Virus record (IMG/VR): IMGVR_UViG_3300045988_159706
DNA from: a virus
Strand: one strand, 5' to 3'
DNA: 64,000 bases
Shown: positions 58,539 through 62,145 of the stretch, piece by piece
Layout of the letters: the number at the start of each line of letters is the position of its first letter
How positions within the stretch are numbered: the first letter of the stretch is position 1
Position numbers and translations under genes: made by a program
Notes under the pieces: model-generated
What the model was told of the DNA's origin: nothing
Databases searched by the model: none
The model's input: only the letters and a program-made list of their open reading frames with translations

Positions 58539-59045
58539 ATGAAAACATTATTTGTATTTCAAATTCAATCATTTACTAATGTGGTTACAAATAGTTCTAG
58601 TGAGCTGTTTGTATTTACTGGAACCACTGAAGTTGTAAGTGATATATTAGATTCTAATGTTCCAGGATGGGAACACGAATATGATGACCCACAGTCAGTA
58701 CAGGATTTAAGTCCCAGCTCTTTAGAAACTTATCTTTCTTATGCTTACAACAATTATGATTGGAACTGGGACAATAAACGAATAACTAGAGAAACAAGTA
58801 GACAAACTCGTTGGGCTAGAGAATTTAATATTGACCCAAATGATCTTTACAAAAATTATAAAGAGTGGGATCCAAATTCTGAAAAATGGGAAATTTCTCA
58901 ATTACAACTCAAAGAAGGTTGGGATAAACTCATTAAACAGAAACTTAATCCAAACTTAGTTTTTGTTTTTTCAAAGGGTGAAAATCCAAATTGGGAGCGC
59001 CAAGAAGAGATGATGACCTTTGGTTCCCGCTATCATTTAGGATAA
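58539..59045 (+). CDS. member 1 of a four-gene TNSSSE-motif paralog family
   Basis: N-terminal FQIQSFTNVVTNSSSELFVF. Confidence 0.6.
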   Translation: MKTLFVFQIQSFTNVVTNSSSELFVFTGTTEVVSDILDSNVPGWEHEYDDPQSVQDLSPSSLETYLSYAYNNYDWNWDNKRITRETSRQTRWAREFNIDPNDLYKNYKEWDPNSEKWEISQLQLKEGWDKLIKQKLNPNLVFVFSKGENPNWERQEEMMTFGSRYHLG

Positions 59046-59046
59046 T

Positions 59047-59379
59047 ATGAAAATAAAAATAAATATACAATCTGAATCTGATTTAATTACAAACTCATCT
59101 AGTGAGATCTTTTGTGCCATATCTTCTTTATCTGAGGATTCAATAAAGATGGTTCAGGAATATCTTAATTCATTTCTTCCTGATGGTGTTGAGTATTCAA
59201 GTCCTTCTGATATTTTTACAGTAGATGAATCTAGATATGTTATTACGTTTGAGATTAGTTACTCAGAAAATCATGAAGAGACTGGAAGACAGATGTACAC
59301 TTTAATAAAACAATTATTAAAGGAACATTTTCCAGGGGATAATTCATTTACTGTTGAAGATGGAGAGAATTATAATTAA
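59047..59379 (+). CDS. member 2 of the TNSSSE-motif family
   Basis: N-terminal INIQSESDLITNSSSEIFCA. Confidence 0.6.
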   Translation: MKIKINIQSESDLITNSSSEIFCAISSLSEDSIKMVQEYLNSFLPDGVEYSSPSDIFTVDESRYVITFEISYSENHEETGRQMYTLIKQLLKEHFPGDNSFTVEDGENYN

Positions 59380-59665
59380 ACTTCAAAGTGTCAGTGATAT
59401 CATTACAAATTCTTCTTCCGAAATCTTTCAGATTAAAGCTAATATGTCAGAACAAACTTTCTATAGAATTTGGCATAATCTTCTAAATAAATATGAAAAA
59501 GGTTGGAAGCATTCTGGAATTGATCATACTTACTTGGGGATTTTTGAAGTAGAAGATGAGTATATTATGCTTAGATTTCCTTCTATGTGTAACATAGGGT
59601 ATGATATGCGTGAAGCTCTTGAGGAACTTTTTGGAGAAGAAAATGTTCAATACTTTAGTTATTAA
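59354..59665 (+). CDS. member 3 of the TNSSSE-motif family
   Basis: N-terminal IKLQSVSDIITNSSSEIFQI. Confidence 0.6.
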   Translation: MKMERIIIKLQSVSDIITNSSSEIFQIKANMSEQTFYRIWHNLLNKYEKGWKHSGIDHTYLGIFEVEDEYIMLRFPSMCNIGYDMREALEELFGEENVQYFSY

Positions 59666-59963
59666 AATACAATCTGTTTCTGATGTAATTACAAACAGCA
59701 GTACAGAGATTTATACAGTTTGTACAGAATATACTTTAGATAGGTTAAAAGATATTGTTAATAGTATCTTAAAAATCGCTGATTCTACACTTACAGCAGA
59801 TGACTTATTTACCTTTGAATTGGATGAAGAGTCTGATGAGTACTCTGCTTATTATGACAGAGGTTATAAAGTTATTCCGAAGAAAGAAAACTATACTGAA
59901 GCTGCCAAATATTTATCTAATATAATGGATATATTTGAACAAGAAGCTTCTTTTGAAAGTTAA
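59643..59963 (+). CDS. member 4 of the TNSSSE-motif family
   Basis: ATG 59643 inside track ORF 59601-59963; IKIQSVSDVITNSSTEIYTV. Confidence 0.6.
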   Translation: MFNTLVIKIQSVSDVITNSSTEIYTVCTEYTLDRLKDIVNSILKIADSTLTADDLFTFELDEESDEYSAYYDRGYKVIPKKENYTEAAKYLSNIMDIFEQEASFES

Positions 59964-59968
59964 TAAAA

Positions 59969-60877
59969 ATGAAAGATTGGAAAGCATGGGGAATTAAGAA
60001 AAGAGTATTCCCAGATAAGAATTATAATGCAATTTGGCACGATTTAAAAACTGTTCGATTAGGTTCTGGGCAAGCTAAAGAATTAGATTATCCAGAATTC
60101 TACGATGTTGGAATTAATACTCTTTGTAATCTAGGATGCCCATTTTGTTATGTTGGAGCTACATCTAAAGGAGTAAATCATGATCATATATGTGAAAAGG
60201 CTAAATTTTTCTTTGGCAGCATGACTGAGAATGAGAAACCTTTTCAGATTGCAATTGGTTCTACAGGAGAACCTACAATTCATCCTGAGTTTTGTGAGTT
60301 TCTTAAAACAATATATAGTTTGGGGATCGTTCCTAACTATACAACTAATGGAATCTCAATAGCCAAATATGATGGTAATGCAGAAGAAATTTTAGAAGCT
60401 ACTTCCAAATATGTAGGAGGAGTTGCTGTTTCAGCAAATACATGGAATCCAGAAATAGATTCTGCTTGGAGAAGTGCTATAGTACTTCTGCATAAATTCG
60501 GGAACACTAATATCAATATTCATTATATAATTAATGATAAAAAGTCTGTTGATGACTTTATTAAAATTTATAATCAATATAAAGATATTGTTCTATACTT
60601 TGTACTACTTCCTTTGATGCCTTCTGGTCGGTCATCAAATAAATACTCGCAAGAAGCATTTGAATACCTTCTTGAACAAGATATAGACTTTAAACAAATT
60701 GCATTTGGAGCACATTTCTATGACTCTTTATGTAATCAAAATAAGTTAGGATGCTATTTATATCCTCCTGAAAGTCTATCTAAAAACCTTATTTTAGGAG
60801 AGAAGATTATGGTTACTCCAAGTTCCTTTAATCTTACTCCTATTAAGGAAATTAATTTCAGTTATGAAAACTTGTAA
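59969..60877 (+). CDS. radical SAM enzyme
   Basis: CNLGCPFCY (CxxxCxxC) and GSTGEPT motifs. Confidence 0.8.
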   Translation: MKDWKAWGIKKRVFPDKNYNAIWHDLKTVRLGSGQAKELDYPEFYDVGINTLCNLGCPFCYVGATSKGVNHDHICEKAKFFFGSMTENEKPFQIAIGSTGEPTIHPEFCEFLKTIYSLGIVPNYTTNGISIAKYDGNAEEILEATSKYVGGVAVSANTWNPEIDSAWRSAIVLLHKFGNTNINIHYIINDKKSVDDFIKIYNQYKDIVLYFVLLPLMPSGRSSNKYSQEAFEYLLEQDIDFKQIAFGAHFYDSLCNQNKLGCYLYPPESLSKNLILGEKIMVTPSSFNLTPIKEINFSYENL

Positions 60878-61055
60878 AGTAATTTTTAGAGATGAAACTT
60901 TAGCACAAGACAGTATCGTGGATTGTTGGTTAAACGATGTTGGAGATTTAGAGTTTAAATTGTACTTTGATCCTCCAGTAACAGAAACTTCTGACCTTGG
61001 TTCATTAGCTGGACAGTTATGCTATAGTTTCTGTAAAGCTTTAAAGGATGAATAA
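60864..61055 (+). CDS. small hypothetical protein
   Basis: ORF track. Confidence 0.45.
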   Translation: MKTCKVIFRDETLAQDSIVDCWLNDVGDLEFKLYFDPPVTETSDLGSLAGQLCYSFCKALKDE

Positions 61056-62145
61056 AATCATATTGTTAAATGCAATTGTTGGAAGTCAGGCGTATGGAAC
61101 AAATACGCCTGACTCTGACATTGATACAAAGGGAGTATATCTTCAGGATCCTATGGAAGTCTTAGGGATGGAGTATAAGGAACAGATTAACCTGGATAAG
61201 GATGCCTGCTTATATGAAGTTAGAAGATTTTTGCAACTACTTTGTAGTGGAAATCCTACAATGTTGGAACTTTTGTATATTCCTGAAGATTGTATTCTAG
61301 AAAAGCACCCTTTGTGGGATATTATATCGAAACATAGAAGTGCATTTCTAACTAAACAATGCTACTTTAGTTTTGCTGGTTATGCATATCAACAAGTAGA
61401 AAAGGCTAAAGGGCTAAATAAGAAAATGAATTGGGAGGCTGATAAAGTAAAAAGAAAAAGGCCAATTGATTTTCTAAAAGTTATTGACAACTGTAAAACA
61501 TATCCTCTTGTTGAATGGTTAAAGCGTAATCAGATGCATGAGGATTGCTGTGGACTTGCTAAAGTCAATGATTCAGAGAATCTTTATGCTTTGTGGTATG
61601 ATGACATTAAAGAAATGTCTAAGACCAAAGACTTGTCTAATCCTAGATATAAAGATTGGAAAGATTTTGGATATAAAGGAGTTTGTAATGATGTTGAATT
61701 ACTACTTTCAGAGATTCCAGAATGGCAAATTCCTATGTGTAGGTGTAACCTTTACTACAATAGGAATGGTTGGGGAGAACATTGTAAAGACTATAATTCC
61801 TACCAAACTTGGCTGAAAGAAAGAAACACACAAAGATATGTAGATATTCAAAATCATGGACAAAAGATCGATGGCAAAAATATGTTACATTGTATAAGAT
61901 TATTACAATGTGCTAATGATATCTTAGATCTTAAAACTATTAATGTTAGAGTTAAGAACCCTGAATATTTACTATCTATTAGACATGGAAAAGTATCCTT
62001 AGAAGAATTACTTGAATCAGCAAGAAATCAAATTAAAGGGTTAAAGCAAAAATTTGAAGACAGTGATTTACCACATTCAGTAGATCCAGATTTAGTCAAA
62101 TCAATATTGAATGAAATAAGAAAAGAATCATTAAATTTGTTTTAA
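61048..62145 (+). CDS. Pol-beta-superfamily nucleotidyltransferase (RlaP-like)
   Basis: N-terminal GSQAYGTNTPDSDIDTKGVY. Confidence 0.65.
   Translation: MNKIILLNAIVGSQAYGTNTPDSDIDTKGVYLQDPMEVLGMEYKEQINLDKDACLYEVRRFLQLLCSGNPTMLELLYIPEDCILEKHPLWDIISKHRSAFLTKQCYFSFAGYAYQQVEKAKGLNKKMNWEADKVKRKRPIDFLKVIDNCKTYPLVEWLKRNQMHEDCCGLAKVNDSENLYALWYDDIKEMSKTKDLSNPRYKDWKDFGYKGVCNDVELLLSEIPEWQIPMCRCNLYYNRNGWGEHCKDYNSYQTWLKERNTQRYVDIQNHGQKIDGKNMLHCIRLLQCANDILDLKTINVRVKNPEYLLSIRHGKVSLEELLESARNQIKGLKQKFEDSDLPHSVDPDLVKSILNEIRKESLNLF

Follow-up and report, generated by a model that had tools for sequence, protein, structure and literature searches.

The 64,000-nucleotide stretch of viral DNA in IMG/VR record IMGVR_UViG_3300045988_159706 (hereafter the window, whose numbering is used for coordinates) carries at 58539-62145 a cluster in which four tandem genes, encoding small proteins that share an N-terminal peptide (the tag), precede a gene for a radical S-adenosylmethionine (SAM) enzyme. 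We found that tag genes and the radical SAM gene together form a widespread, real and tightly defined two-part phage module, which is undescribed in the literature searched; full-text searches with the motif strings, and for phage systems involving radical SAM enzymes or ribosomally synthesized and post-translationally modified peptides (RiPPs), yielded no description of it. All genes of the window lie on the + strand. The open reading frame (ORF) listing gave the seven genes of the cluster in the order of four tag genes, the radical SAM gene, an ORF of 63 codons and a nucleotidyltransferase gene, each located where a preliminary description of this DNA had placed it. Our favored reading, to which we give about even credence on the strength of sequence comparisons and structural models, is that the radical SAM enzyme is a maturase that recognizes the tag and modifies the tagged proteins, probably within an invariant Asn-Ser-Ser loop.

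The linkage between the two parts was apparent from either direction. A tag-anchored set, found through the tag alone, comprised 73 IMG/VR loci on phage contigs of up to 313 kb, and 71 of these encode a homolog of the radical SAM enzyme (36-100% identity) within a few kilobases, nearly always on the same strand; the two exceptions are a 2-kb fragment and locus L046, leaving 71 of 72 informative loci. Conversely, 235 viral contigs encode a relative of the enzyme, and all 80 loci kept from this second set carry between two and seven tag genes. At these 80 loci, 295 of 297 tag genes lie upstream of the radical SAM gene and on its strand, with a median distance of 314 nucleotides between the start of the nearest tag gene and that of the radical SAM gene. 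When all neighboring ORFs were clustered, no further gene family proved to accompany the pair other than through lineage-specific synteny, and the minimal loci consist of the radical SAM gene and a single gene whose tagged product ends in HLG. Phages with the standard code carry the module, as do phages in which TGA is a sense codon. As to the extent of the system, the tie between tag genes and radical SAM gene suggested by the preliminary description was borne out, but the last two genes of the cluster proved not to be conserved with the module: the nucleotidyltransferase stands beside it only in the closest relatives (L001-L019), and the 63-codon ORF is confined to close relatives and to L022-L027, where it is 48% identical. 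The tag family was not found widely in places lacking such an enzyme, nor did it match a structural virion family, the two outcomes that the preliminary description had named as contrary to its proposal.

The tag spans about 22 residues with the consensus h-x-h-[QH]-S-x-x-D-h-I-T-N-S-S-[ST]-E-h-[FY]. The versions present in the window are MKTLFVFQIQSFTNVVTNSSSELF in protein 1 (58539-58610), MKIKINIQSESDLITNSSSEIF in protein 2 (59047-59112), MERIIIKLQSVSDIITNSSSEIF in protein 3 (59360-59428) and MFNTLVIKIQSVSDVITNSSTEIY in protein 4 (59643-59714); together they read M..h.h.QS..[DN]..TNSS[ST]E.[FY], with Q, S, T, N, S, S and E invariant among the four. A strict version of the pattern occurs four times in the six-frame translation of the window, against a mean of 0.0 in 200 shuffles, and a hidden Markov model (HMM) trained on 120 distinct tags from related phages matches exactly the four genes (E values from 1e-11 to 3e-14; next best, 0.2). 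The N, S and S residues are present in 120 of the 120 tags, and D and T in 97%. The DNA encoding the tag is only 66-86% identical between copies, and serine is specified by TCT in some and by AGT in others, so that conservation acts on the tag as protein and not as DNA. The paralogs had been thought to share a block of roughly 20 residues and to diverge completely thereafter; the tag itself is real, but the similarity reaches about 40 residues, taking in the tag, the next strand and the first helix (hhalign probability 98%), before it stops.

Searches beyond the window returned the tag as an N-terminal element of small orphan proteins. A profile of the four proteins retrieved, at E ≤ 0.01, 2038 proteins, all of them devoid of Pfam domains. 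When the tag alone served as the profile, 1078 cluster representatives out of 1.84 billion scored at E ≤ 0.001; the 150 best of these without exception have the tag starting at residue 1-18 and are 33-295 residues long. The ten longest tag-bearing proteins have no Pfam domain. The four proteins of the window gave no significant match in scans of Pfam, PHROGs, NCBIfam and PADLOC (their PHROGs hits were non-significant), nor any match at E ≤ 0.001 in sequence-profile searches of the PDB. With one genome per species for 185,579 bacterial and archaeal species, the tag was found on just two small contigs of a single metagenome-assembled genome of Intestinibacter; the family is thus essentially confined to phages.

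Behind the tag, the proteins differ. When the tag was masked, 228 tagged proteins fell into 28 body clusters with no detectable mutual similarity. Tagged protein 1 (168 residues; 58539-59045) belongs to a long form of 130-245 residues that is present at 70 of 74 loci and is the most widespread tagged partner of the radical SAM enzyme; this form always ends in HLG followed by the stop codon and has a conserved hhhS-x-x-[DE]-N-[PS] motif, the C-terminal part of protein 1 carrying the invariant FSxxENPxW...RYHLG-stop. Tagged protein 4 (106 residues, isoelectric point (pI) 4.1; 59643-59963) represents the second most widespread subfamily (c1, 44 loci), and smaller subfamilies include protein 2 (110 residues, pI 4.2; 59047-59379; c3, 21 loci) and protein 3 (59360-59665; c7, 6 loci), which has 101 residues from its ATG or 103 from a TTG at 59354. 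Genes 2 and 3 overlap by 20 nucleotides and genes 3 and 4 by 23, with a gap of 5 nucleotides between gene 4 and the radical SAM gene, an arrangement that we count in favor of co-expression. The family is acidic, with a median pI of 4.6 and a median net charge of -11, compared with a median pI of 6.0 for the other ORFs of the window. Most members have an aromatic and acidic C-terminal tail, and aromatic residues are enriched in the last six positions (102 of 123 proteins, against a background of 0.58).

AlphaFold2 (AF2) models, computed with family alignments, predicted folded bodies and left the tag unplaced. For protein 1, the predicted local distance difference test (pLDDT) score was 87.8 overall and mostly >90 for residues 20-168, falling to <50 for residues 4-18; for protein 4, it was 74 overall and good for residues 28-100, with residues 1-21 at <50. 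Neither body matched a PDB or BFVD fold at E ≤ 0.001 in Foldseek searches, which gave only weak ferredoxin-like alpha+beta similarities. In both models the most conserved segment is not packed against the body, as would fit a peptide that acts through a partner. These models also bear on a second idea in the preliminary description, that the motif is the active site of a new family of small enzymes; put more broadly, TNSS(S/T)E would be a catalytic or ligand-binding loop of new small enzymes or binders serving the same pathway as the radical SAM enzyme. Three features would suit such a family: conservation falls on polar residues (H/Q, S, D, T, N, S, S, E) of the sort seen in loops that bind phosphate or metal, the stretch in common continues past the loop into a strand and a helix, and the HLG form has further invariant polar residues. 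Yet only a linear segment is common to bodies otherwise without detectable similarity, it is always at the extreme N terminus and unpacked in the two models, and no Pfam, NCBIfam or PDB family is matched, making this the weaker reading and, in our judgment, an improbable one.

The radical SAM enzyme (302 residues; 59969-60877) matches PF04055 with 36.0 bits against a gathering cut-off of 29.5. Its cluster motif CX3CX2C, formed by C53-NLG-C57-PF-C60-Y (CNLGCPFCY), is invariant in 47 distinct homologs, as are no other cysteines; PFQxAxGxxGE (a GGE-type motif, PFQIAIGSTGEP in the window) and PNYTTNG, which we take to be the SAM-binding and ribose motifs, are also conserved among homologs. With only the three cluster cysteines conserved, the enzyme has neither a SPASM nor a twitch cluster, in agreement with the preliminary description, and it gave no match to PF13186 (SPASM). 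Its best NCBIfam matches (SPASM-group maturases, NirJ/Ahb, Tes and viperin) are limited to the core and fall far below their cut-offs, the best score for a named maturase being 33.9 bits against a cut-off of 380. The nearest solved relative is Tes (E value 3.5e-10 over about 95 residues), and beyond the core the closest HMM matches are to peptide or protein maturases of the SPASM and twitch groups and to viperin.

Among cultured phages, the only similar enzyme is phrog_7293, annotated as a "putative radical SAM protein", in T4-like phages (RB16p156, KP15, Miro and others) and in Vibrio phage D479, the latter being the sole match at E ≤ 1e-5 when the enzyme was compared by tblastn with 50,697 phage records. 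The window enzyme and the phrog_7293 protein are 25% identical over 94% of their length (pairwise E value 2e-14), are collinear to the C terminus and have in common an N-terminal DWK...N.N...KT extension. The conserved C-terminal motifs YxPE..S and SS of the window's clade align with SPASM-like cysteines of the T4-like homolog; specifically, Y-P-P-E-S and T-P-S-S-F stand opposite E-P-C-E-S and F-P-C-S-F of D479. Because proline or serine thus replaces these cysteines, we read the clade as having kept the C-terminal domain next to the active site while losing the clusters, suggesting that the substrate-binding region was retained; in SPASM enzymes that C-terminal region is tied to peptide binding. 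Two further observations concern the gene itself. In nine loci (L003, L005, L021, L024, L027, L041, L053, L058 and L069) it is split by an insert of 1.2-2.3 kb, which in L003 (11441-12623) interrupts the GGE-type motif directly after PFQIAIG and holds small ORFs; this insert matched no intron family in Rfam and could be an unrecognized intron or homing element. Apparent fusions of a tagged protein with the enzyme (ORFs of 439-554 residues in L055, L056 and L068) proved spurious, the result of TGA read-through in the wrong frame.

A conserved N-terminal part on variable bodies, beside a radical SAM enzyme, had led the preliminary description to liken the cluster to precursor and maturase systems. 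The reciprocal neighborhood tests bear out the link between the block and the enzyme, but not a system of the classical RiPP kind, in which the tag would be a cleaved leader and the product a short modified peptide derived from the body or from its aromatic C-terminal tail. The tandem genes directly upstream of the radical SAM gene and the aromatic residues at the C termini are what such a system would offer; the bodies, however, are proteins of 100-295 residues that are confidently folded in the models and retained as orthologous subfamilies between phages. Moreover, no protease or exporter is conserved with the module, no RiPP recognition element (RRE) was detected by Pfam, and the enzyme lacks the SPASM or twitch cysteines, so we consider a classical RiPP pathway very unlikely.

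We therefore return to the maturase reading in a form that leaves the tagged proteins intact. A single enzyme is encoded with many unrelated bodies that bear one invariant, exposed N-terminal peptide, and their genes, which often overlap, are co-transcribed with that of the enzyme; for this reason we think that the enzyme recognizes the tag. A tag that stays invariant while the enzyme falls to 36% identity and the bodies diverge is what would be expected of a substrate motif served by one common enzyme. We infer that the radical SAM enzyme acts on the tagged proteins, and the residue modified, the chemistry and the biological role are proposed in the same spirit. The tag would be a flexible N-terminal handle, recognized by the enzyme perhaps partly through strand pairing, and would be threaded into the active site, where the 5'-deoxyadenosyl radical may abstract a hydrogen from the invariant Asn-Ser-Ser stretch. 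The same post-translational modification would be installed on every tagged protein, whatever its body. Since the enzyme has no auxiliary iron-sulfur clusters, the chemistry would probably be redox-neutral or self-recycling, as in epimerization or in oxidation of a Ser/Thr side chain to a carbonyl with return of the electron to the main cluster; PoyD-type epimerases and DesII are precedents for such chemistry. The tagged proteins would themselves be the working products, an accessory and rapidly reshuffled set that probably acts on the host early in infection.

Reshuffling of the tag genes was evident among strains that are >90% identical, whose arrays contain two, three or four of them. Shorter arrays contain in-frame chimeras whose junction falls within the tag, the N terminus of gene 1, 2 or 3 being attached to the body of gene 4 (L002-L014, L016 and L017, around 10500-11140; proteins P0014 and P0037). 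The body of gene 3 is missing from most of these strains, and in L002-L014 the N terminus of gene 3 is fused to the gene-4 body. In-frame joints of this kind point to unequal recombination between the tag-coding repeats as the process that drives the gain and loss of genes.

This turnover also helps to weigh the main rival of the maturase reading, a possible but rather unlikely model in which the tagged proteins are interchangeable subunits with an adaptor, specificity or regulatory role, each plugged onto the radical SAM enzyme by its tag acting as a strand. The HLG form would then be obligate, and the chemistry would be performed on a third substrate (a nucleotide, a nucleic acid or a host molecule). 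The same linkage between tag and enzyme is accommodated, as are the near-universal presence of the HLG form (70 of 74 loci) and its many invariant polar residues outside the tag, which would befit a catalytic or obligate partner. A tag that is left unplaced in models of the monomers would be expected of a strand that needs its partner, and the enzyme is about the size of viperin, to which it has weak matches. On the other hand, bodies are lost and fused freely among strains >90% identical, with one to seven per locus, which is unusual for enzyme subunits; an interface strand should covary with its partner, and T-N-S-S-S-E is invariant although the enzyme drops to 36% identity; and the viperin and NrdG models score far under their cut-offs.

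Several points weigh against the maturase reading itself, for which the support comes from genomic association and models. Locus L046 encodes a tagged protein with no radical SAM enzyme within 10 kb, and at L038 the radical SAM gene lies about 6 kb away on the opposite strand. The well-studied radical SAM enzymes that oxidize or cross-link peptides usually need auxiliary clusters, which are lacking here. No RRE was detected by Pfam at E ≤ 1 in the enzyme or in the neighboring proteins, and the conserved 45-residue N-terminal extension of the enzyme is too short for a full RRE. The long HLG form has invariant polar residues beyond the tag (E47, Y48, S145, N149, Q155, R164 and H166), which look more like those of an enzyme or an obligate partner than of a passive substrate. 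Finally, invariant columns carry no covariation signal, and this may be part of the reason for the tag's low scores in the AF2 models.

The tag genes of the window lie in a replication or early block, beside genes for a primase (57117-58160) and a resolvase-like PD-(D/E)XK nuclease (58114-58509). In related gut phages (L077, 9220-10026 and 16337 onward), tag genes and a radical SAM gene lie between such a primase/resolvase pair and a gene for an ADP-ribosylglycohydrolase, and the gene for a class III ribonucleotide reductase (NrdD) follows at a distance of about 7 kb. The gene table of the Zeta crAss-like phage Lera lists a primase, a Holliday-junction resolvase, one short ORF and an ADP-ribosylglycohydrolase, with no radical SAM enzyme annotated (PMC12386605). 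As the module is not annotated between these landmarks in Lera and is present between them in a gut relative, it appears to be accessory. The acidity of the tagged proteins, their early genomic position, their accessory status and their rapid reshuffling suggest host-directed effectors, and it is this role that we postulate for them.

Position and charge also speak to another explanation, namely that the tag is a propeptide ending in Glu that targets proteins to the capsid or is cut by a prohead protease, the radical SAM gene being an incidental neighbor. The T4 internal-protein targeting sequence and the S/A/G-X-E cleavage sites of phiKZ are analogs, and a conserved N-terminal peptide that ends S-S-E on unrelated small proteins in a tandem, variable array would be in keeping with them. 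This explanation leaves unaccounted for the near-total reciprocal linkage with one clade of radical SAM enzymes in phages whose surrounding genes have nothing else in common; the strong acidity of the bodies sets them apart from internal proteins that bind DNA, and the genes, which occupy the replication or early block, match no PHROG structural family. We hold it to be highly improbable.

The window reads TGA as a sense codon, probably for tryptophan. With TGA counted as a sense codon, coding density goes up from 0.56 to 0.87; the ORFs of the window contain 54 in-frame TGA codons against 225 TGG (TGA making up 19% of Trp codons), and TAG serves only as a terminator in the called ORFs. Three in-frame TGAs occur in the primase gene, one in the resolvase-like gene and one in the gene at 62146-63546. 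The 26 tRNA genes of the window include suppressor-type anticodons TCA (41494-41584) and CTA (20950-21030). Lera was reported to use translation table 4 and to have 26 tRNAs, with Sup-TCA and Sup-CTA (PMC12386605). The code and tRNA features of the window match this description; the window is not Lera itself, and no close match to it was found among the 50,697 deposited phage records. As the preliminary description had noted, the cluster at 58539-62145 has no in-frame TGA: its tryptophan codons are 24 TGG and 0 TGA, compared with a TGA share of 19% in the window (P about 0.006) and of 35% in the flanking 45-64 kb (P about 3e-5). This could reflect (i) recent acquisition from a phage with the standard code, or (ii) expression at a time when the suppressor tRNA is not yet present. 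In-frame TGA does occur in tag genes of the recoded relatives L020 and L021.

Outside the conserved module, the cluster is completed by an acidic ORF of 63 residues (60864-61055), a lineage-specific neighbor, and by an RlaP/Pol-beta-type nucleotidyltransferase of 365 residues (61048-62145; PF10127, E value 3.7e-22 and 79.7 bits against a cut-off of 23; phrog_388, E value 1.7e-54). Elsewhere in the window, we noted an adenylosuccinate-synthetase-like gene at 33160-34254 (PF00709, E value 3e-27) that matches the PurZ-named phrog_1211, and at 63550-64000 the N-terminal domain of a dATP/dGTP diphosphohydrolase (PF18909, E value 3e-18; phrog_801). A PurZ-type enzyme together with a dATP/dGTP diphosphohydrolase is a hallmark of phages that replace adenine by 2-aminoadenine in their DNA. 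A block for nucleotide and NAD metabolism (30014-32268 and 35710-36771) encodes a nicotinamide phosphoribosyltransferase (phrog_448, E value 4e-155), an NAD synthase (PF02540, E value 2e-54) and an IMPDH/GMP-reductase-like protein (PF00478, E value 2e-39).

If the radical SAM enzyme modifies the tag, the module would provide a new radical post-translational modification, one of folded proteins and not of peptides. The enzyme behind it would be a minimal one that lacks auxiliary clusters, and many large phages would encode it, among them crAss-like relatives that are abundant in the human gut. More than 1000 clusters of orphan proteins from phages would also gain a function, and a new class of early, host-directed effectors could come to light. 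More tentatively, and with limited confidence, we envisage a phage-wide modification system in which >1000 families of small acidic proteins, one tag and one enzyme free of auxiliary clusters would make up a reshufflable anti-host arsenal with exchangeable folded cargo. Such a system would be a protein-scale counterpart of RiPP logic, with the tag as a transplantable handle for the radical modification of arbitrary proteins, and a 22-residue tag with a single enzyme could become a tool for protein engineering. Even interchangeable tagged subunits docked on a radical SAM enzyme would be an unusual enzyme architecture.

Of the known systems, two sets come closest. Multi-precursor RiPP clusters beside radical SAM genes are known from sactipeptide and ranthipeptide systems, and a conserved leader on diverse cores is the logic of the prochlorosins. 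The module resembles these in its tandem genes with conserved N termini directly upstream of a radical SAM gene and in an enzyme core most like SPASM-group maturases; it differs in that its "cores" are folded and 100-295 residues long, in the absence of SPASM/twitch cysteines, of a detected RRE and of a conserved protease or exporter, and in its restriction to phages. Radical SAM enzymes that act on whole proteins include the anaerobic sulfatase-maturating enzymes (anSMEs), which act on sulfatases at C/S-x-P/A-x-R, and the activases of glycyl-radical enzymes, whose targets have an RVxG[FWY] loop. Here, too, one radical SAM enzyme is paired with many proteins through a short invariant motif, which in this case is Ser-rich, and the enzyme is of activase size with a single cluster; in contrast, the tag matches neither motif and is always N-terminal, and anSMEs need SPASM clusters. 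An anSME was rejected, as the tagged proteins have no C/S-x-P/A-x-R motif and the enzyme has no SPASM domain, and so was a glycyl-radical or NrdG activase (NrdG2 model TIGR02495, 20.1 bits against a cut-off of 131). No RVxG[FWY] loop was found, the tag having no Gly and the C-terminal RYHLG differing in spacing, with its Arg absent from subfamily c2.

Other identities fared no better. Viperin (pVip) was rejected on a score of 26 bits against a cut-off of 180 for NF038283, over residues 51-163 only, and on a PADLOC pVip match (E value 1.8e-9) confined to residues 49-163. The radical SAM enzymes of thymidine hypermodification (M6/ViI) were rejected because no tblastn match at E ≤ 1e-5 other than D479 was found among the 50,697 phage records, in which we assume M6 and ViI to be present. 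The phrog_7293 proteins differ in keeping SPASM-like cysteines where the window enzyme has P or S, and RB16, which carries one of them, has no tag genes near its radical SAM gene. D479 was likewise rejected as a member of the family: its ORF starting MKIRNGFVSNSSSSSFV scores 6.6 bits against the tag HMM, no better than chance, and no relatives of this ORF were found in the phage collection. This ORF (L076, 4140-4538; VPHD479_0110) encodes 132 residues ending in IKYEYERF and lies 1.4 kb upstream of the SPASM-type radical SAM gene of that phage.

The internal proteins of T4 are similar in that a variable tandem locus encodes small, unrelated proteins, each beginning with a short conserved peptide that ends in Glu, whereas the proteins described here are acidic (the T4 type being basic), are encoded in an early or replication block and are obligately linked to a radical SAM enzyme; neither basic bodies of the T4 type nor a PHROG structural match was found among the tagged proteins. 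Taken together, the module is most like motif-directed protein maturation by radical SAM enzymes and leader-directed maturation of RiPPs, yet it fails the defining tests of each, and there is a substantial chance that it represents something more distinct than a variant of either.

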